A stretch of 64,000 bases of DNA. Source: Parcubacteria group bacterium (GTDB lineage Bacteria; Patescibacteriota; Minisyncoccia; UBA6257; JACRHW01). The notes below the pieces were generated by a model. It did not search any database, had not been told where the DNA came from, and saw nothing but the letters and a program-made list of their open reading frames with translations. The stretch lies in contig JACRHW010000023.1 of the NCBI GenBank assembly GCA_016217555.1, positions 64,466 to 128,465 on the forward strand. Direction: 5' to 3'. Both the position numbers and the translations under genes were made by a program. Positions 12,351 through 61,866 of the stretch are shown one piece after another; position 1 is the first letter of the stretch; each line of letters opens with the position of its first letter.

Positions 12351-12476
12351 ATAGAACTTCTCTATTTGGATGCAGTACAAGGAAAACGCGAGGAACGGAG
12401 TAAGCCGTACACAAGAAGTACTGCGTCGAGTACCACAGCGTTTGACGAAGTAATGCGCCGAATAGAGAAGTTCTAT
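12351..12476. repeat. R2 element copy 1: conserved structured core (ATTTGGATG…AGGAAAACGCGAGGAACGGAG…GTTTGACGAAGTAATGCGCCGAAT) enclosed by a copy-specific 13-bp perfect inverted repeat (ATAGAACTTCTCT / AGAGAAGTTCTAT). It abuts the uvrA stop codon.
   Basis: Four copies in the window (12.35k, 37.33k, 47.85k, 61.0k). The flanking IR continues into ATTTGG/CCGAAT pairing (including a G·U), giving a ~19-bp closing stem. Confidence 0.85.
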
Positions 12477-15049
12477 CACATGTGTTTTTTGAGGTATTGG
12501 CCTGTCACACTATATGCATTTTTTACTATGTCCTCTGGAGTGCCTGTGACGAGGATTTTTCCTCCACGCTCTCCGCCCTCGGGACCAAGATCAATCACCC
12601 AGTCAGCTGTCTTAATAACATCGAGATTATGTTCAATCACAACAATAGTATTTCCTCGACTTACAAGACGCTGTAGTACATCGAGTAATTTTTCGATATC
12701 AGAAAAGTGAAGTCCTGTAGTTGGCTCATCAAGTAAATACAACGTCCTTCGTGTATCCCGCTTCCCAAGCTCTGCCGCAAGTTTGATACGTTGCGCCTCG
12801 CCACCAGACAAGGTCGTCGCCGACTGCCCAAGTTCGAGATACCCCAAACCCACCTCGTATAAAATCTTAAACTTATCATATAGCCATGGAATATCTTCAA
12901 AGAAAGCGAGCGCCTCCTCGACTGTCATACGCAGCACCTCGTAGATATTTTTACCCCTGTACTCAACCTCAAGCGTCTCTCTGTCAAAACGCTTCCCCTT
13001 ACAAATATCACAGAGCACATAGACAGTAGGAAGGAAATGCATCTCGATAGCAATCGTCCCATGCCCCTCACAATGCTCACAGCGCCCCCCAGGGACGTTA
13101 AAACTAAAACGCCCTATTCTATATCCGCGCACACGCGCATCCTCCGTAGAAGTAAATAACTCACGCACATGTGTCCATGCCCCCACATACGTCGCAGGAT
13201 TAGACCGCGGCGTTCTTCCAATCGGTGACTGATCAATCGTAATAACCCGATTAACATATTCGAGTCCCAAAATCGCATCACACGCACCTCCTTTATAATC
13301 AGCTCCGTTGAATTTATTGGCTAAATACTTATAGAGCACGTCGTAAACAAGCGAGCTCTTCCCCGACCCAGATACACCCGTAATACAGGTGAGTTTTCGG
13401 AGAGGAATATCTACATCGATGTTTTTAAGGTTGTGTGCTTTTGCTCCTCGAATTTTGATCGACTCATCAATAATTCCACGTTTTGATTTTACCACCCGTC
13501 GGTTCTCAGGAATTGTAATACTCTTTGTACCACGCAGATAATCGAGTGTAAGCGAATTAATCTTTTTATTCTTCAAAATATCCGGTATCTCCCCCTGCGC
13601 CATCACACTGCCCCCATGCACCCCCGCCCCTTTTCCAAAATCAACGAGATAATCAGATGCTCGAATGGTATCCTCGTCGTGCTCAACTACCACAATAGTA
13701 TTTCCAAGATCGCGTAGATTTTGGAGTGTTTTAATAAGCTTTGCATTATCTCTCTGATGAAGACCAATGGTAGGCTCATCAAGCACATAAAGAGTTCCTG
13801 TAAGACGCGAACCGATTTGGGACGCAAGACGTATACGCTGCGCCTCGCCACCGGAGAGCGTCCCCGCCTTACGTTCAAGCGTTAAATATTCCAACCCAAC
13901 ATTTCGTAAAAAGGTTAGCCTGTTTTTAATCTCCTTCAAAGGTACCTCAGCAATGCCGAGCAACGCCTCATTTTCAAGAAGCGACGTTTCGATCTCATCA
14001 AAAAATCGATACGCCCCATCGACAGCAAGACTCGTGATATGTGCAATATTTACCCCACCAACGAGCACGTTGAGACTTTCTTTCTTAAGACGCTTTCCCT
14101 TACAAACATCACAAAGCTTATCCGACCAAAGCTCCTCAGTACCTAATCCATGACACTTCTCACACGCACCATAAGGACTATTGAATGAAAAAAGGCGTGG
14201 TTCAATTTCTGGGAAGGCAAATTCATCCTCTGGGCAAGAGAATTTTGTAGAAAGTGTAATTTCCTTTGCCCCGATAGCAACCGTCACTACATCATTCCCA
14301 TACTTCACACCCGACTCAATCGCCTCAGCCAACCGAAGACGATTTTCTTTATCCTTAAAATCAAACGTCACTGGAATACGATCTATCACCAATTCTATGG
14401 TGTGTGGCTTAAAACGACTCAACACGATCCGCTCACGCAAAGAATACATCTTCCCATCAATACGAACCTCGCTAAACCCTGCATTTAAAAAATCATACAG
14501 TACCTGGTAATATTCTCCCTTACGTCCACGTACGACGGTTGCAAAAATAGTAATAAGATTCTCGTCCCTTGATGCCCCGACAATAATAGCATTCTTATTT
14601 TTCGAAGTGGCACTTTTTTTAAATTCAATAATTGCATCTACAATCTCCTCTTTCGTCATTTTTCTGATTTCCTTTCCACAAAGAGGACAATAAGGTTTTC
14701 CGATACGAGCAAAGAGAACTCGCAGATAGTCATAAATTTCTGTAATAGTTGCTACCGTCGAACGTGGATTTCCTGAGTGACTTTTCTGATCAATCGAGAT
14801 AGCAGGTGAAAGCCCCTCAATCTCATCAACGTCGGGCTTATCCATCTTTCCCAAGAACTGACGTGCATAGGCAGAAAGTGACTCTATATACCTCCTCTGT
14901 CCCTCTGCAAAAATAGTGTCAAACGCCAATGACGATTTACCCGAACCCGATGGGCCAGTAAATACAATCATCTTCCCGCGCGGCAACTCAAGATTAATAT
15001 TCTTAAGATTATGCTCACGCGCACCTCTAATAATTAATTTATCTTTCAT
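12476..15049 (-). CDS. uvrA: Excinuclease ABC subunit A.
   Basis: Two ABC ATPase modules: GPSGSGKSSLAFDTIFAEGQRRY and GVSGSGKSSLV, with zinc-finger cysteines. Confidence 0.9.
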   Translation of the reverse strand: MKDKLIIRGAREHNLKNINLELPRGKMIVFTGPSGSGKSSLAFDTIFAEGQRRYIESLSAYARQFLGKMDKPDVDEIEGLSPAISIDQKSHSGNPRSTVATITEIYDYLRVLFARIGKPYCPLCGKEIRKMTKEEIVDAIIEFKKSATSKNKNAIIVGASRDENLITIFATVVRGRKGEYYQVLYDFLNAGFSEVRIDGKMYSLRERIVLSRFKPHTIELVIDRIPVTFDFKDKENRLRLAEAIESGVKYGNDVVTVAIGAKEITLSTKFSCPEDEFAFPEIEPRLFSFNSPYGACEKCHGLGTEELWSDKLCDVCKGKRLKKESLNVLVGGVNIAHITSLAVDGAYRFFDEIETSLLENEALLGIAEVPLKEIKNRLTFLRNVGLEYLTLERKAGTLSGGEAQRIRLASQIGSRLTGTLYVLDEPTIGLHQRDNAKLIKTLQNLRDLGNTIVVVEHDEDTIRASDYLVDFGKGAGVHGGSVMAQGEIPDILKNKKINSLTLDYLRGTKSITIPENRRVVKSKRGIIDESIKIRGAKAHNLKNIDVDIPLRKLTCITGVSGSGKSSLVYDVLYKYLANKFNGADYKGGACDAILGLEYVNRVITIDQSPIGRTPRSNPATYVGAWTHVRELFTSTEDARVRGYRIGRFSFNVPGGRCEHCEGHGTIAIEMHFLPTVYVLCDICKGKRFDRETLEVEYRGKNIYEVLRMTVEEALAFFEDIPWLYDKFKILYEVGLGYLELGQSATTLSGGEAQRIKLAAELGKRDTRRTLYLLDEPTTGLHFSDIEKLLDVLQRLVSRGNTIVVIEHNLDVIKTADWVIDLGPEGGERGGKILVTGTPEDIVKNAYSVTGQYLKKHM

Positions 15050-32530: not shown

Positions 32531-32802
32531 CCCTCACCACAACCGCCTCTCTCAGCGGTCTTTTATTTTTCTAAACATCCTTTATCATGATTACAGGCAG
32601 TGCAAAATCGAAGATTAAAATGAGCCCTCAAGGGGGAGTCAGGTGTTATCGCTATTTATGGTGAGCTTGTCGAATCCATGATAGGGGGACTGTAGGGGTC
32701 TCCCTCTTGTAGGCGAACTTTTAATCTTCGGTCTTGCATACCAAATCCACACGTTGACTCAATAAAACAAAAAAACTAAACTATAAGTACTTAACAATTT
32801 AA

Positions 32803-32864
32803 TTATCAAGAGTGTGGCGAGAGTTCTAGCTCTGTGACCCACCAGCAACTTGTCTCAAAGATAA
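32803..32864 (+). promoter_or_regulatory. Candidate SAM-binding riboswitch-like leader upstream of metK.
   Basis: TTATCAAGAG…GGCGAGAG…CTCTGTGACCCACCAGCAAC…CTCAAAGATAA. An S-box-like 5' P1 strand (UUAUCAAGAG) pairs with a 3' GAUAA. An internal GAGAG/CUCU hairpin and a GCAAC motif are present. It is shorter than a canonical SAM-I aptamer. Confidence 0.3.
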
Positions 32865-32952
32865 AGTGCTTCTAGCCCTAATGGGAAAGATAATCGTCGC
32901 ACATCATCTCTCCCGCAAGGAGGGTGTTTTTATTATTACTAACCATTACAAC

Positions 32953-34002
32953 ATGTTTATACCAACAACCTATACTGTAGAAAGTGTTACCTCAGGTCAT
33001 CCTGACAAAGTGTGCGATCAGATTTCAGATGCGTCACTCGACGCATGCCTCAAAGAAGATCCAAAAAGTCGTGTCGCCGTAGAAGCCTTTGGCGGTCATG
33101 GCCATCTTGTGATAGGAGGTGAGGTTACCTCAAAAGCAACAGTCAATTATGCAGAGCTTGCCAGAAATTTATATAGAGACATTGGCTATGATGATGCGCT
33201 TGATATAGCTGTCTATGTAGCACAACAATCCCCTGACATCTCGCAAGGTGTCGATACGGGTGGTGCAGGAGACCAGGGCATCATGTATGGCTATGCAACA
33301 GATGAGACGCCCGAGCATCTTCCTGCTGGGATTGTTCTCGTGCATAAACTTACTAAAGGGCTTGAGGATCTACGCAAAAATAAAATAGTCTCATGGCTTA
33401 AACCCGATGGAAAGGCACAGGTAACAATGCAAGACAATCGCCTCACTACCATCCTTGTAAGCACAGAGCACGATGAATCAGTTACCCAAGATGAGATTAG
33501 AAAAACAATTTCGGAGAAACTTATTACACCGCTTGGTGTTGATCCGAACTCAATAGAACTTTTTGTAAATCCTACGGGGAAATTTGTGATGGGTGGTTTC
33601 GAAGCAGATACCGGACTTACTGGACGAAAAATAATGGTAGACACCTACGGTGGTCTTATCCAACATGGGGGTGGGTGCTTCTCAGGAAAAGATCCAACAA
33701 AAGTAGATCGCTCAGCAGCCTATATGTGCCGATTCGTTGCAAAAAACATTGTCGCAAACAAGCTTGCAAAAACGTGTTTTGTCTCTGTTGCCTATGCCAT
33801 TGGCCACGCAGAACCCCTTATGATTTACGCTGCCGATGAAACAGGAAAAGACCTGAGCGTAATCGCAAAAGAAAAATTTGATTTTCGCCCACAGGCAATC
33901 ATCGAACGCCTCAACCTTCGCCGCCCTATTTATCTCCAAACCGCTACCTATGGCCACTTTGGAAAACAAGGCCTCCCCTGGGAAGAAATAATTACGATAT
34001 AG
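32953..34002 (+). CDS. metK: S-adenosylmethionine synthetase.
   Basis: MFIPTTYTVESVTSGHPDKVCDQISDA…GGGAFSGKDPTKVDRSAAY. The start is set at ATG 32953. The track's GTG at 32866 would extend the ORF into the leader. Confidence 0.9.
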   Translation: MFIPTTYTVESVTSGHPDKVCDQISDASLDACLKEDPKSRVAVEAFGGHGHLVIGGEVTSKATVNYAELARNLYRDIGYDDALDIAVYVAQQSPDISQGVDTGGAGDQGIMYGYATDETPEHLPAGIVLVHKLTKGLEDLRKNKIVSWLKPDGKAQVTMQDNRLTTILVSTEHDESVTQDEIRKTISEKLITPLGVDPNSIELFVNPTGKFVMGGFEADTGLTGRKIMVDTYGGLIQHGGGCFSGKDPTKVDRSAAYMCRFVAKNIVANKLAKTCFVSVAYAIGHAEPLMIYAADETGKDLSVIAKEKFDFRPQAIIERLNLRRPIYLQTATYGHFGKQGLPWEEIITI

Positions 34003-37324: not shown

Positions 37325-37331
37325 CAACCTT

Positions 37332-37452
37332 GGGACCTACGTATTTGGATGCATTACGAGGAAAACGCGAGGAACGGAGTAAGCTGTACAGAATGAGTAC
37401 TGCGTCGAGTACCACAGTATTTGACGAAGTAGTGCGCCAAATGGGTAAGTCC
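37332..37452. repeat. R2 element copy 2. The core is ~95% identical to copy 1 and the flanking IR is different and imperfect (GGGACCTACGT / GGGTAAGTCC). It ends 2 nt before the typA stop.
   Basis: Same conserved blocks as R2 copy 1. The internal helix GCATTAC/GTAGTGC (including a U·G pair) corresponds to GCAGTAC/GTAATGC in copy 1. Confidence 0.85.
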
Positions 37453-37454
37453 TA

Positions 37455-39245
37455 TTATTTTCTTCGTGCTCGTGCTCGATCCAGATCAGTAAGAAATTCC
37501 TTGCGAAGACGTACGCTTTTAGGGGTGACTTCTAGGAGTTCATCGTCTTCCATAACCTCAAGACCACGCTCGATGGTAAGTTGCCACGCAGGTGCAAGCT
37601 GAATGTTATCATCAGTTCCTGAGGCACGCATATTAGTAAGCTGTTTGCCCTTAGTAGGGTTTACCGACATTGCGTCACCCTTTGCAGTGTTTCCTATTAC
37701 CATACCTTCATACACTTCAACATTAGGTTCAATATAAAGCTGTCCGCGTGTCTGAAGATTATCAAGAGAATAACCCAATGCTTTCCCGGTAACCATAGAC
37801 ACCATAGAACCAGCACTTCTTTTCACCAAGTCACCACAATAAGGTTTAAATCCTTCTACACGGCTCGCCATAATCCCCTGACCCTTTGTGTCCATAACAA
37901 ACTGATTGCGGTATCCAAGAAGCCCACGTGTGGGACCCTCAAATATCATACGCACTGTATTTTCATGTGGATCCATACTAACAATACGCGCCTTTCGATT
38001 TGAAAGTCGTTCAATAATAATGCCCTGGAATTCTGATGGAACATCGATAGTGATCTCTTCAAAGGGCTCCTGTTTCGCTCCATCAACTTCTTTAATAATA
38101 ATGTGTGGCTGGGATACCTGAAGCTCAAACCCCTCTCTTCGCATGATCTCAAGAAGAATGGCAATGTGGAGCTCACCTCGTCCAAAAACACGAAATTTAT
38201 CTGCATCAACAAAATCAACATGTAAACCCACGTTCACCTCGAGTTCTTTTTCAAGGCGTTCTCGAATTTGTCGTGAAGTAACAAACTTTCCTTCGCGTCC
38301 TGCAAAAGGAGAATTGTTAACCATAAAGTTAAGTGAAATAGTTGGCTCATCTACGTGTATAGAAGGGAGCGCTTCTTGAGTAGGAGAGGCGCAAATAGTT
38401 TCACCAATAAAAATGTCAGGGATTCCGGCGATCATCGCAATATCTCCTGCCACAGCCTCAGATACATCTTCGCGAGAGAGCCCACGGAAGGTAAAGATCT
38501 TTGAAATTTTTCCAGAACGGGTGGCACCCTCCATGTTTTTTATGTATACATTATCACCCACCTTAATTACCCCTTCATAAACACGGGCAATAGCAAGACG
38601 CCCGAGATAGTTGTCATAGGCAAGGTTAAAGGGTTGTGCACGCAAAGGCGCATCAATATTTCTTGGCGCAGGAGGAATTTCTTCGATAATAGTATCGAGA
38701 AGTGGAGAAAGATCAACAAACGTATCAGTAAGCTCACGTTTAGCTACCCCATCTCGGCCAACCGCATAGACCGTAACAAAATCAAGTTGTTCGTCATTTG
38801 CGCCAAGATCAATAAAAAGCTCGAGCACTTCATTTTCAGTACGCTTGATGTCAGCCGCTGGCTTATCAATCTTATTCACCACGACAATAGGCTTTAAACC
38901 TATCTCGAGCGCTTTCTTGAGTACAAAACGTGTCTGTGGCATAGGCCCCTCCTGAGCATCGACAATAAGAAGCACTGCATCAATTGAACGCAATACGCGT
39001 TCCACCTCAGAACCAAAATCAGCGTGACCAGGAGTGTCTACGATATTAATCTTTGTACCCTTATAAAATATTGAAGTGTTTTTTGAATAAATAGTAATGC
39101 CACGCTCCTTCTCGAGTGTGTTTACATCCATACTCATCCCCTCCTCGAACATTCCGCACTGACGCATAATAGCATCGGTGAGAGTTGTTTTACCGTGGTC
39201 AACGTGAGCAATGATAGCAATATTTCTAATTTCTGTTGGCTCCAT
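37455..39245 (-). CDS. typA: Translational GTPase TypA/BipA.
   Basis: IRNIAIIAHVDHGKTTLTD plus EF-G-like domains. Start set at MEPTEIRN (39245). Confidence 0.9.
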   Translation of the reverse strand: MEPTEIRNIAIIAHVDHGKTTLTDAIMRQCGMFEEGMSMDVNTLEKERGITIYSKNTSIFYKGTKINIVDTPGHADFGSEVERVLRSIDAVLLIVDAQEGPMPQTRFVLKKALEIGLKPIVVVNKIDKPAADIKRTENEVLELFIDLGANDEQLDFVTVYAVGRDGVAKRELTDTFVDLSPLLDTIIEEIPPAPRNIDAPLRAQPFNLAYDNYLGRLAIARVYEGVIKVGDNVYIKNMEGATRSGKISKIFTFRGLSREDVSEAVAGDIAMIAGIPDIFIGETICASPTQEALPSIHVDEPTISLNFMVNNSPFAGREGKFVTSRQIRERLEKELEVNVGLHVDFVDADKFRVFGRGELHIAILLEIMRREGFELQVSQPHIIIKEVDGAKQEPFEEITIDVPSEFQGIIIERLSNRKARIVSMDPHENTVRMIFEGPTRGLLGYRNQFVMDTKGQGIMASRVEGFKPYCGDLVKRSAGSMVSMVTGKALGYSLDNLQTRGQLYIEPNVEVYEGMVIGNTAKGDAMSVNPTKGKQLTNMRASGTDDNIQLAPAWQLTIERGLEVMEDDELLEVTPKSVRLRKEFLTDLDRARARRK

Positions 39246-47850: not shown

Positions 47851-47975
47851 TAGAACCTACATATTTGGATGAAGTGCGAGGCGCACATGAGAAACGGACT
47901 GAACTGTATTTCACTGATACAGCGAAGGAGTATCGCAGTGTGCAACGAAGCAGTTCGCCGAATATGTAGGTTCTA
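47851..47975. repeat. R2 element copy 3, diverged core, with a 15-bp perfect flanking IR TAGAACCTACATATT / AATATGTAGGTTCTA. It ends 1 nt before the rpsP stop.
   Basis: The ATTTGGATG … GAGAAACGGA … ACGAAG … TTCGCCGAAT blocks are conserved. The central region differs. Confidence 0.8.
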
Positions 47976-47976
47976 A

Positions 47977-48264
47977 CTATTTCTTCTTGCCTTCTTTCTT
48001 TTTCGCATGCACCGCCACCTTCTCCCCCTTCATAAGCCCGGCACGAACAAATAAGTTGTGCACTGTCTCGGATGGCTGTGCACCATTCTTAAGCCAATAG
48101 GCTACGCGGTCTTCTACAAGCGAGTGTTTCCCTGTATGAGGGTTTAACCACCCTAAATCTTCATTAACCTTACCCCCTCTTGGCTTTGAACGCTGCGGTA
48201 AAACAACCACTCTATAGGTAGACTGGTGCTTCTTACCAATGCGATTTAATCGAATACGTAACAT
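47977..48264 (-). CDS. rpsP: 30S ribosomal protein S16.
   Basis: MLRIRLNRIGKKHQSTYRVVV. Confidence 0.9.
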   Translation of the reverse strand: MLRIRLNRIGKKHQSTYRVVVLPQRSKPRGGKVNEDLGWLNPHTGKHSLVEDRVAYWLKNGAQPSETVHNLFVRAGLMKGEKVAVHAKKKEGKKK

Positions 48265-60919: not shown

Positions 60920-61004
60920 CAACTTATCAGAAATCTGACGATCGTCAGAAATTTGATTTATTTAAAATATTCTGTTAAGGTAACCTAATTACTAATAACA
61001 AGCA

Positions 61005-61263
61005 TTGGGACGTACGCATTTGGATGTAGTTCAAGGAAAACCCGAGGAACGGAGAGAAGTCCGACTTCCCCAAAGTTGACGTCTGTTCGTTCGTAAGGAA
61101 GTCGGACTTCTAAAGATTGATTCGTCACGTTTTCACGTTCAATATAAAGAAGTTCAACTTCCGACAAACCACCGAACCTCAATATCTGGGAAGTTGAACT
61201 TCTCATATTGCGTTCTGTACCGGAGCGTTTGACGAAGGAATGGGCCGAATGCGTACGTCCCAA
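61005..61263. repeat. R2 element copy 4 with a ~170-nt internal expansion (two internal hairpins) and a 16-bp perfect flanking IR TTGGGACGTACGCATT / AATGCGTACGTCCCAA. It ends 12 nt before the ATG of the PaaX-like gene.
   Basis: Conserved blocks ATTTGGATG…AGGAAAACCCGAGGAACGGAG … GTTTGACGAAGGAATGGGCCGAAT. Confidence 0.8.
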
Positions 61264-61275
61264 ACATAGCAAATT

Positions 61276-61866
61276 ATGAAACACGGAGAACTTACAGCCA
61301 ACATTTTAAAATGGATTGGCGAAGGCATTATTCTGCAAGTAGATCTCTTAGATGCCATACTCTCTTCTGGGTACGGATCATCGTTCTCAAAAATGCAGCG
61401 AAAAGTTGAGAAACTTCAAAGTGAGCGAGAACGTAAAAACGAGGAAAGAAGACAGCGCCACTCCTTTCAAAGCCTTCTTCATCACCTGAAAGAGGAGGGT
61501 TTTATCCGAATGAATGATAAGAAAAATAAAAAGAGTGGATTTTTCGTAACAGAAAAAGGAGGACGATATCTAAAAAAACTAGAAAAGAAAGTAGACCAAC
61601 AAATAGAAAAACGTGCATATATAAAAACTGAAGATGCTCAACTCAATATCATCCTCTTTGATATTCCAGAACCTGAAAGAAAAAAACGGGAATGGTTGCG
61701 TCAGGAACTTAATTATCTAGGCTTCACCATGCTTCAAAGAAGTGTCTGGGCGGGAAAGATAAAAATTCCAAAGGAAATGCTTGAAGACTTAGCACACTAC
61801 AAACTTCTCCCCTACATAGAAATTATAGCAGTTACAAAAACAGGTACTCTCAAAAAGGTTATTTAA
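61276..61866 (+). CDS. PaaX-family-like winged-helix regulator, truncated relative to PaaX.
   Basis: …FVTEKGGRYLKKLEKK…LNIILFDIPEPERKKREWLRQELNYLGFTMLQRSVWAG resembles the PaaX N-terminal and middle region (SDKG…LLLSE…LIWQGFG). Confidence 0.4.
   Translation: MKHGELTANILKWIGEGIILQVDLLDAILSSGYGSSFSKMQRKVEKLQSERERKNEERRQRHSFQSLLHHLKEEGFIRMNDKKNKKSGFFVTEKGGRYLKKLEKKVDQQIEKRAYIKTEDAQLNIILFDIPEPERKKREWLRQELNYLGFTMLQRSVWAGKIKIPKEMLEDLAHYKLLPYIEIIAVTKTGTLKKVI

Follow-up and report, generated by a model that had tools for sequence, protein, structure and literature searches.

What kind of sequence recurs four times at the borders of unrelated genes in a short stretch of a bacterial genome? The question was raised by the genome of a Parcubacteria group bacterium (GenBank assembly GCA_016217555.1, contig JACRHW010000023.1, positions 64,466–128,465 of the forward strand), of which a stretch of 64,000 nucleotides, referred to as the window, was analyzed. 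An earlier note, made from the letters of the window, had described a structured element in four copies, the first at 12351–12476; these copies are designated c1 to c4, while related loci elsewhere carry L numbers and compared proteins carry P numbers. All four copies were present at the intervals given in that note and all contained the ordered sequence blocks listed there. A degenerate pattern (TTGGATG-N6-RAGG-N7-GAGNAACGGA) had four matches in the 64-kb window, which were c1–c4, all on the + strand; with up to three mismatches tolerated, the chance expectation in the window was 0.03. The analysis revealed c1–c4 to be real copies of an uncatalogued mobile element of approximately 125 bases. 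With a probability of roughly 0.7, they are members of a large non-autonomous mobile family that is confined to Patescibacteria (candidate phyla radiation, CPR) and has the behaviour and insertion route proposed below.

Scanning of contigs from one genome per GTDB species with the exact pattern returned 58 stretches, and all but a few were labelled Patescibacteria, including Saccharibacteria, Parcubacteria, Magasanik-, Uhr-, Morani-, Peri-, Yanofsky- and Roizmanbacteria and the 'Patescibacteria group'. The non-Patescibacteria exceptions L009 and L049 were chance matches in which the rest of the core was missing. Two contigs labelled as gammaproteobacterial metagenome-assembled genomes (L011 and L058) had true copies, and these labels may reflect mis-binning; the copy at L058:3621–3740 stops a few nucleotides short of the 5' end of what was read by eye as a tRNA-Leu-like sequence. 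In JGI/ENA metagenomes, at least 120 stretches were obtained with the exact pattern, and the covariance model of the family detected approximately 20 further, more diverged copies in about 0.8 Mb around the seed copies. The copy density in carrier genomes was approximately one per 15–30 kb, consistent with four in the 64-kb window. Carriage by phages or plasmids was rejected, as no pattern match was found in 2.9 million viral contigs (IMG/VR) and no BLAST match in the phage and plasmid collections INPHARED and PLSDB.

The element could not be assigned to a catalogued RNA family. Rfam 15 at the gathering threshold, applied to the window and 18 related loci, reported only tRNA and SAM riboswitch, both elsewhere, and the search of c1 and one Saccharibacteria copy at E ≤ 10 gave only chance-level scores of 12–16 bits. 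A single, unrelated tRNA-Ala was predicted by ARAGORN. Full-text literature searches found no description of the element in CPR bacteria, and exact-protein look-ups of the window RpsP and of P0001 returned no record. The window TypA was 100% identical to an NCBI protein of the Parcubacteria group. The opinion of the note that the architecture belongs to no nameable class holds with respect to Rfam; it had left out the closest analogue, the Rickettsia palindromic element (RPE), which is considered below.

The conserved part of the element was found to be a fold. A total of 132 distinct cores of 96–99 nt could be aligned almost without gaps, and the RNAalifold structure of this alignment was an unbranched rod of 31 pairs, 21 of which had changes on both sides, in agreement with the earlier proposal of a closing helix around a conserved internal domain. 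From the outside in, the rod began with P1 (UUUGG/CCAAA), which has a bulged A, and P2, in which a purine-purine mismatch is conserved; the internal loop AAGG / GACGMAG came next, followed by the hypervariable P3 of 6–7 bp, the conserved GAG[N]AACGGA / GAGUA[N']C internal loop and the P4 hairpin. The N and N' positions covaried, being G-C in 53, C-G in 38, A-U in 28 and U-A in 5 of the cores. Standard pairs occupied 95.4% of 4090 cells compared to 28–41% when the 3' partners were slid by 1–3 columns, and the covariation score was 0.546 compared to 0.05–0.08 in the slid controls; the observed values were reached by none of 500 shuffles. Saccharibacteria copies contained an extra hairpin of 41–48 nt between the core 3' end and the 3' arm, which gives a three-way junction. 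The conserved GAGUA/AAC loop is taken here, as a structural guess, to be similar to a loop-E (bulged-G) motif. Of the resemblances considered, those to the hammerhead, to hairpin-ribozyme loop B, to group II domain V and to sarcin-ricin were dropped, and the loop-E-like reading alone was kept.

The fold was specific to one strand. When both strands of c1–c4 were folded, the + strand gave z values of -5.4 to -9.4 and the - strand fold was always less stable. In c1–c3 the difference was 10–15 kcal/mol, because several pairs are G·U on the + strand. A U·G pair was kept in 129 of the 132 cores and G·U was common at several other pairs, whereas A·C pairs, expected if the opposite strand were functional, were rare. 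Thus, the + strand of the window is the structured strand.

Presence of the element at orthologous sites was patchy. At the c2 site, the typA stop codon of L179 (TypA 86% identical) runs straight into an element-free spacer (TAA-tttaTAGACTAGG-GGTTG, compared to TAA-TAGGACTTACCC-[core]-...CCCAA-GGTTG in the window), and L180 and L181 (TypA 81% and 79% identical) are also element-free at typA. L179 carries TAGACTAGG at the place matching the c2 3' arm; therefore, 3'-arm-like sequence may pre-exist there. The empty site of c4, L003 (540–615), is syntenic, with proteins 60–87% identical and equal flanking genes, and has an unrelated spacer of ~75 nt, free of any palindrome, where the window has the 259-nt c4. 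In MAFFT alignments with these empty sites, the junctions of c2 and c4 could not be placed to the nucleotide, the intergenic DNA being too diverged. The insert of truB was located directly before K-VGHTGTLDP in 7 of 19 Saccharibacteria orthologues, with close relatives lacking it (L183 is empty), and the TruB proteins P0122 (filled) and P0123 (empty) were otherwise collinear. The insert of xth was present in orthologues 71–77% identical to the L046 protein and absent from the closest ones (82–87%). Such presence and absence at orthologous sites requires gain, precise loss or homing and excludes a fixed RNA gene. Since the empty sites L179, L183, L185 and L003 are palindrome-free, insertion into the centre of pre-existing hairpins, one of the two alternatives offered in the note, is refuted.

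The origin of the outer arms could be followed at the nucleotide level in xth, the gene of exonuclease III. In the empty allele (L185; 87% protein identity) the sequence is CAA AAG AAA AAG / CCA GTC ATC TAT TGT, where the slash marks the junction, and in the filled allele (L046) it is CAA GAA GGC AAG [129 nt] CCA GTC ATC TAC TGT. The insert of L046 (ATT AAT ... GTA GGT GCT GGT TTG GAT ... TTC GCC AAA) is exactly 43 codons long and is not accompanied by a duplication. The 3' arm, CCAGTCATCTAC, consists of the host codons for P-V-I-Y, which are also present in the empty allele, while the 5' arm, GTAGGTGCTGG, lies within the insert and pairs with the host 3' arm by 10 Watson-Crick pairs, one G·U and one bulge. 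Hence the closing helix is made or matched at each insertion, as the note had suggested with an element that produces its own inverted flank. The filled xth of L187 has CCC GTG ATC TAC as host sequence and GTAGGTCACGG as 5' arm; GTC has been replaced synonymously by GTG in the host, and the 5' arm carries the matching change. P1 of this copy has changed from TTTGG/CCAAA to CTTAG/CTAAG through synonymous changes on both sides, and P3 was wholly different yet still complementary among three orthologous xth copies. A like geometry could be observed, at the protein level only, in RarA, where the arm lies over K-H-T-V-L-F (Walker B strand), and in an NYN-domain protein, where it lies over RRAV before KGNID.

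Across the family, a clear outer helix was detected in 100 of the 130 distinct copies with enough flank, with a sharp length peak at 13 nt (12–14) in both architectures. When copies at different loci with cores at least 90% identical were paired, the inner 7 nt of the arms were ~55% identical and the outer 6 nt 40–67%, which is barely above the arm identity for unrelated cores. As arms differ between near-identical cores, they are re-set per insertion and do not drift with the element, and the argument of the note against slow compensatory drift is sustained. Parcubacteria-type arms, including those of the window, had a common outer end (TAGGAC/TAGAAC ... GTCCTA/GTTCTA); identity of the outer 6 nt was 48–67% in this type and 31–40%, near random, in the Saccharibacteria type. 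Within the window, the outer ends TAGAAC/GTTCTA were common to c1 and c3 and TTGGGAC to c2 and c4, so that only the inner ~7 nt were copy-specific. The flanks had been called 0% identical, which is incorrect in view of the outer 6 nt. Among arm mismatches, 81 were G·T and 19 A·C, and the respective numbers were 35 and 5 in copies antisense to the neighbouring gene. The G·T excess in antisense copies points to one of two causes, namely selection on a single-stranded form of the + strand other than the mRNA of the neighbour, or copying mispairs.

No general target-site duplication was found, as 90 of 100 copies were without a flanking direct repeat of at least 4 nt and none was present at the xth junction. 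Direct repeats of 5 nt occurred at the ends of four TAGGAC-type copies compared to 0.9 expected; the excess of 4–5-nt repeats was weak and restricted to these four copies, and target-site duplication was rejected. By eye, RarA and truB seemed to have the 3' arm repeated directly, and at greater length, upstream of the 5' arm; this idea was discarded, as no such copy was present in c1, c3, c4, L072 and L097.

Copies of the element were found within the coding sequence of at least 12 different genes, always in the sense orientation, in the frame TTG GAT G.. and without stop codons. According to Pfam and PDB comparison, the hosts included FolD, RarA/MgsA, family-4 UDG, NYN-domain proteins (two genomes), peptidyl-tRNA hydrolase (Pth), TatD, Dus (two copies in one gene), a FemAB-family protein, TruB and exonuclease III (Xth), and the element was positioned within a domain or between domains. 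The peptide pattern was LD[AE]VQG..E.R.E.Y. A crude gene call around all copies had placed many of them inside long same-strand open reading frames (ORFs). Apparent antisense copies in genes turned out to be short spurious ORFs or one high-GC chance match, and several 'N-terminal' cases, such as the pilin gene of L120 and DinB of L130, probably represent 5' leaders. Two reading frames were used for the 3' half of the core among the copies, even among truB orthologues, because the P4 loop varies in length, and the host frame resumed downstream. The old, degenerate copies in truB of L184 and in the UDG gene of L113 scored 65–66 bits compared to ~90–105 for intact copies and had lost diagnostic nucleotides and P3 complementarity; the ORF was still open in both. 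Where elements were located between two same-strand ORFs, the neighbours were complete and different genes, and none was split by the element. The kept frame, the open decayed copies and the lack of split genes suggest, as read from the sequences, that copies in genes are translated through and not removed.

The claim that the element is not protein coding could thus be upheld in part: no peptide is conserved, but many copies stand in frame in real genes and are evidently translated. A protein-coding module was rejected, as only 46% of cores have an open TTG-GAT frame and the copies do not all read their 3' half in one frame but in two. Antisense frames were open in 71–74%, and stop codons do not explain the bias towards sense copies. 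This bias is due to composition, since the sense strand is purine-rich (63%) and encodes hydrophilic peptides (mean Kyte-Doolittle hydropathy about -1.0, 65% polar residues), whereas peptides of the antisense frames are hydrophobic (about +0.3, 41–44% hydrophobic residues). Within the xth insert, amino-acid identity was lower and third-position identity higher than in the host gene.

Other inserts were also seen in the host genes of the element. A second, unrelated rod-like palindrome of ~165 nt lies in frame in the same xth gene (L046:6494–6653, aa 51–103) and recurs in P0243 and P0308; it has a closing helix of ~24 bp and a fold with z = -8.6, and the covariance model R1 gave no match. Saccharibacteria therefore have at least two families of in-frame palindromic inserts. 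Saccharibacteria TruB had other lineage-specific inserts, for example ISNQSKIQMTDDRKQ after the N-terminal helix and 15–25 aa in the C-terminal half. Pairs of copies in tandem or no more than ~250 nt apart were located at L011:896–1114, L104:7075–7516 and L108:2414–2858, and the L104 pair lies within one Dus gene.

Outside genes, the hairpin base adjoined stop codons far more often than spacer lengths would predict. In 23 of the 39 adjacent-type copies, an antisense stop, often as 'stop-TAG', was located between -4 and +6 nt relative to where the arm ends, and in many sense copies the stop of the upstream gene was at the 5' arm. In the window, the outer end of the 3' arm lies at -1, 0 and +1 nt from the - strand stop codons of uvrA, typA and rpsP, respectively, and c4 ends 12 nt before a + strand ATG (61276). 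In relation to their neighbours, which were unrelated, 43 copies were opposite to both, 23 had the same orientation as both, and 20 and 20 were mixed. The 3' arm overlapped the ribosome-binding site (RBS) or start of the next gene at several Saccharibacteria loci. Given all four orientation classes and the unrelated adjoining or host genes, a riboswitch or cis-regulatory leader was rejected. An intrinsic terminator was also rejected, with no terminator-like call at the closing helix and no palindromes at the empty sites, and no promoter or terminator signal above chance could be found at c1 and c3. Other hairpin-closed elements, whose cores were different, were seen at gene ends in relatives: an 18-bp inverted repeat around ~150 nt just after uvrA (L017:6890–7076) and a 20-bp inverted repeat around ~40 nt no more than about 13 nt after the typA stop (L180:4337–4416).

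In the proposed explanation, the element would spread within and between genomes and survive either in intergenic positions, with the hairpin base at a stop codon as in c1–c3, or in genes, in sense orientation and one frame. In the latter case, the purine-rich strand would be translated as a hydrophilic loop of 37–60 aa, similar to RPEs. Movement would occur by way of a + strand intermediate (RNA or ssDNA) that is single-stranded and folded and that a trans-acting enzyme would recognize by its fold. The 5' arm would be written from ~13 nt of the target after the insertion point; alternatively, the element would integrate beside a sequence complementary to its 5' segment. For the first route, one possibility is a target-primed snap-back mechanism, in which a nicked target would prime synthesis on the folded element, the new strand would snap back on its own hairpin, and ~13 nt of the target would be copied, giving L-T'-core-T-R with no direct target duplication. 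A broader interpretation can be offered only tentatively: the family may represent a new fold-dependent, protein-less class of mobile element, with the single-stranded fold of ~97 nt as recognition module, a 13-bp helix derived from an inverted target copy or from homing by a 13-nt guide, and in-frame colonization of genes across the CPR.

Several observations weigh against the proposed explanation. The outer 6 nt shared as TAGGAC/GTCCTA could equally be inherited terminal repeats or a target motif. A host-derived 3' arm is established for xth only; RarA and NYN are likely further cases and c2 is a plausible one. The truB junction is ambiguous, with a direct duplication of ~12 nt being possible, and the diverged empty site of c4 (L003) displays neither arm. 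A Pfam scan of ten window ORFs detected no transposase, reverse transcriptase (RT), HUH enzyme or recombinase and identified housekeeping proteins only; the identities were DnaE, ThrRS, UvrB, UvrC, an ATP synthase subunit and a PaaX/Cas2-like protein. Further, third-codon conservation in the xth insert was 0.59–0.68 compared to 0.44–0.50 in the host gene, which hints at in-situ constraint that a purely selfish translated insert would not predict. This nucleotide conservation can possibly be due to in-situ constraint, conversion from other genomic copies or repeated homing.

Four other explanations were weighed. A conventional MITE (miniature inverted-repeat transposable element) would carry both arms as terminal inverted repeats and, in the form of double-stranded DNA, be recognized by a DDE-type transposase whose gene lies elsewhere, in which case the fold would be incidental and the arms would differ by subfamily divergence. 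The shared outer 6 nt of Parcubacteria-type arms, the 5-nt end repeats of four copies and the c4 empty site without either arm would suit such an element. However, a general target-site duplication is absent, Saccharibacteria-type arms lack shared termini, arms are only ~55–67% identical despite cores at least 90% identical, the xth 3' arm is host sequence, and deep strand-specific covariation of internal helices is unexpected under recognition of double-stranded DNA. A conventional MITE is thus considered unlikely. Lower still is the probability assigned to a functional structured RNA kept by the host as a 3'-end stabilizer or terminator, an RBS-sequestering leader or a small RNA gene. Covariation as strong as in bona fide RNA families, the hairpin bases at stop codons in 23 of 39 adjacent-type copies, the 3' arms over the RBS or start of the next gene and the raised third-position conservation of the xth insert would all be in its favour, but copies occur in every orientation beside unrelated neighbours, are patchy among close relatives, lie within coding sequences and are found in tandem or several to a gene; moreover, decayed copies are tolerated and promoter and terminator signals were no better than chance.

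It is very improbable that the in-gene copies are intervening sequences, either removed as mini self-splicing introns or skipped by translational bypass, with a helix between the 5' arm and the exon setting the 3' boundary. The 5' arm does pair with the downstream exon and covaries with it among xth orthologues, conserved catalytic strands follow directly after the inserts (Xth, KPVIYCGD; TruB, KVGHTGTLDP), and nucleotide constraint exceeds peptide constraint. Nevertheless, all genuine in-gene copies are in frame and stop-free, orthologues regain the host frame after internal frame shifts, degenerate copies without the fold are still open, no frame-breaking, gene-splitting insert was found, and most copies are intergenic or antisense. 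A self-splicing intron was rejected in particular, as the in-gene copies appear to be all in frame and open, the decayed ones to keep the ORF, and no gene to be split. The remaining explanation, in which a conserved core was inserted into the loops of hairpins already in place, for example terminators, is barely credible. Copy-specific arms, copies directly after stop codons and the other hairpins at such sites in L180 and L017 could be cited for it, whereas the four empty sites are palindrome-free, 13-bp palindromes are impossible at in-gene sites, and the wobble pairs of the arms suit the strand of the element and not that of the upstream gene.

The non-autonomous mobile family proposed here was compared with known systems. 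RPEs are palindromic repeats that lie between genes or, in frame, within unrelated housekeeping genes, to whose proteins they add translated segments (PMC10969869). The present element resembles them as a palindromic repeat of ~100–150 bp without own genes, with many copies in reduced genomes and in-frame insertion, although it belongs to another phylum and is probably unrelated in sequence. RPE families are described with a conserved peptide, whereas here the peptide is unconserved and a 31-pair fold covaries; in addition, the 13-bp closing helix is copy-specific here and, in xth, is formed with host sequence. To our knowledge, no mobilizing enzyme of RPEs has been reported. By analogy, the element may be classed as a palindromic interspersed repeat that is translatable in frame and RPE-like in behaviour.

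Like Correia/NEMIS, ERIC, RUP, BOX, SPRITE, Coxiella QMITE and REP/BIME sequences, the element is short, non-autonomous, palindromic and multi-copy, and it has the short, non-coding, multi-copy and dispersed character of MITEs. MITEs have terminal inverted repeats common to all copies and target-site duplications. The element differs in having no general duplication, in arms re-set per insertion and in an internal structure kept by strand-specific covariation across several candidate phyla. MITEs and hairpin repeats are often co-transcribed at gene ends, sometimes fuse with ORFs and can act as terminators or mRNA stabilizers (in part PMC10969869).

A structured RNA beside, or pairing with, a host boundary recalls the EBS-IBS pairing of group II introns, the internal guide of group I introns and the omega/re-RNA of IS200/IS605, and patchy occupancy of one site in orthologous genes recalls homing introns and guide-bearing RNAs. 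In IS200/IS605, the guide of the omega/re-RNA is flanking host sequence. The element, by contrast, has no catalytic core of intron scale and no associated RT, TnpA or TnpB ORF in the window; its pairing of 13 bp is with the downstream flank, and its inserts are translated, not spliced. A PATE or omega-RNA module of IS200/IS605 was rejected, as the window has no tnpA or tnpB, there is no fixed upstream motif and the hairpin closes the whole element. The msr-msd of retrons is a structured RNA within the copy-specific inverted repeats a1/a2, and the element is similarly a structured RNA closed by a copy-specific inverted repeat pair. It differs in its dozens of dispersed copies, some of them in genes, and in having no Rfam retron match. 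A retron was rejected, as no RT was found in the Pfam scan, which included the ORFs beside c2 and c4, and c1–c3 adjoin uvrA, typA and rpsP.

Within the window, c1, c2 and c3 are intact, with a core of 97–99 nt and arms of 13–14 nt, whereas c4 is interrupted by two nested hairpins. The outer inverted repeat is Watson-Crick perfect over 14 bp in c1 and over 13 bp in both c3 and c4, whereas that of c2, as had been noted, is imperfect, with several of 13 positions mismatched. The 5' arm of c1 (ATAGAACTTCTCTA, 12351–12364, +) is the perfect complement of 12463–12476; the conserved 98-nt core with P1–P4 (12365–12462, +) scored 90.2 bits (E = 1.9e-25) with the covariance model R1, and the 3' arm (TAGAGAAGTTCTAT, 12463–12476, +) has its final base inside the uvrA stop codon (12476–12478, - strand). 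In c2, the imperfectly pairing 5' arm (TGGGACCTACGTA, 37331–37343, +) is followed by a core of 85.7 bits (37344–37441, +) and the 3' arm (TGGGTAAGTCCTA, 37442–37454, +), directly next to the typA stop codon (37455–37457, - strand). The 5' arm of c3 (TAGAACCTACATA, 47851–47863, +) precedes a core of a divergent subtype (47864–47962, +; 93.4 bits), near-identical cores being present in L003 and L021; the 3' arm (TATGTAGGTTCTA, 47963–47975, +) ends 1 nt from the rpsP stop codon (47977–47979, - strand).

Copy c4 starts with its 5' arm (TTGGGACGTACGC, 61005–61017, +) and the 5' part of the core, comprising P1, P2, the 5' strand of P3 and GAGGAACGGA (61018–61054, +). Its extra length is due to an expansion of ~150 nt with two hairpins (61055–61203, +; hairpins at 61055–61111 and 61148–61203), which stands in place of the apical P4 hairpin. 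The 3' part of the core follows (61204–61250, +), with GUACCGGAG, the 3' strand of P3, GACGAAG and the 3' strands of P2 and P1, and the 3' arm (GCGTACGTCCCAA, 61251–61263, +) lies 12 nt ahead of the ATG of the ORF 61276–61866 (+), whose product has a winged-helix domain and a PaaX_M/Cas2-like domain. The nested hairpins have related perfect 15-bp stems (AGAAGTCCGACTTCC and AGAAGTTCAACTTCC) with loops of 26–27 nt and are unique to c4 within the window; they may represent a further mini-palindrome family or else an expansion of the structure. The family members L019, L036 and L037 have hairpin expansions at different positions.

Mechanical ORFs of 90–114 aa start in or cross the element at 12366–12710 (+), 37330–37602 (+) and 60985–61284 (-), because some frames of the element are without stops; being antisense to real genes, they would be false gene calls. 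The GC skew of the + strand was negative in every 8-kb bin (-0.10 to -0.20; overall -0.155), and nearly all long ORFs of the window are on the - strand, while c1–c4 are all on the + strand. A replication-strand rule was rejected, since the window copies are on the leading-strand template, copies in genes elsewhere are sense, and no consistent rule emerges. A SAM-I riboswitch (RF00162, 49.9 bits) was located at 32800–32896 (+), immediately before the ORF 32866–34002 and overlapping its start.

The genomes of CPR/Patescibacteria are tiny and usually held to be repeat-poor, and yet this element family is abundant in them and crosses the boundaries of candidate phyla. Through it, housekeeping enzymes are remodelled by loops of 40–60 aa and gene ends gain hairpins of 18–20 bp, and the family accounts for many lineage-specific 'insertions' in CPR proteins. 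It also yields a covariance model for annotation, and gene callers can be misled by spurious ORFs through the element. A strand-specific covarying fold, a helix reset per insertion and at least one helix formed with host sequence are unusual for bacterial repeats. These three features point to a transposition route undescribed for MITE- or RPE-like elements, which could inform how RPEs move.

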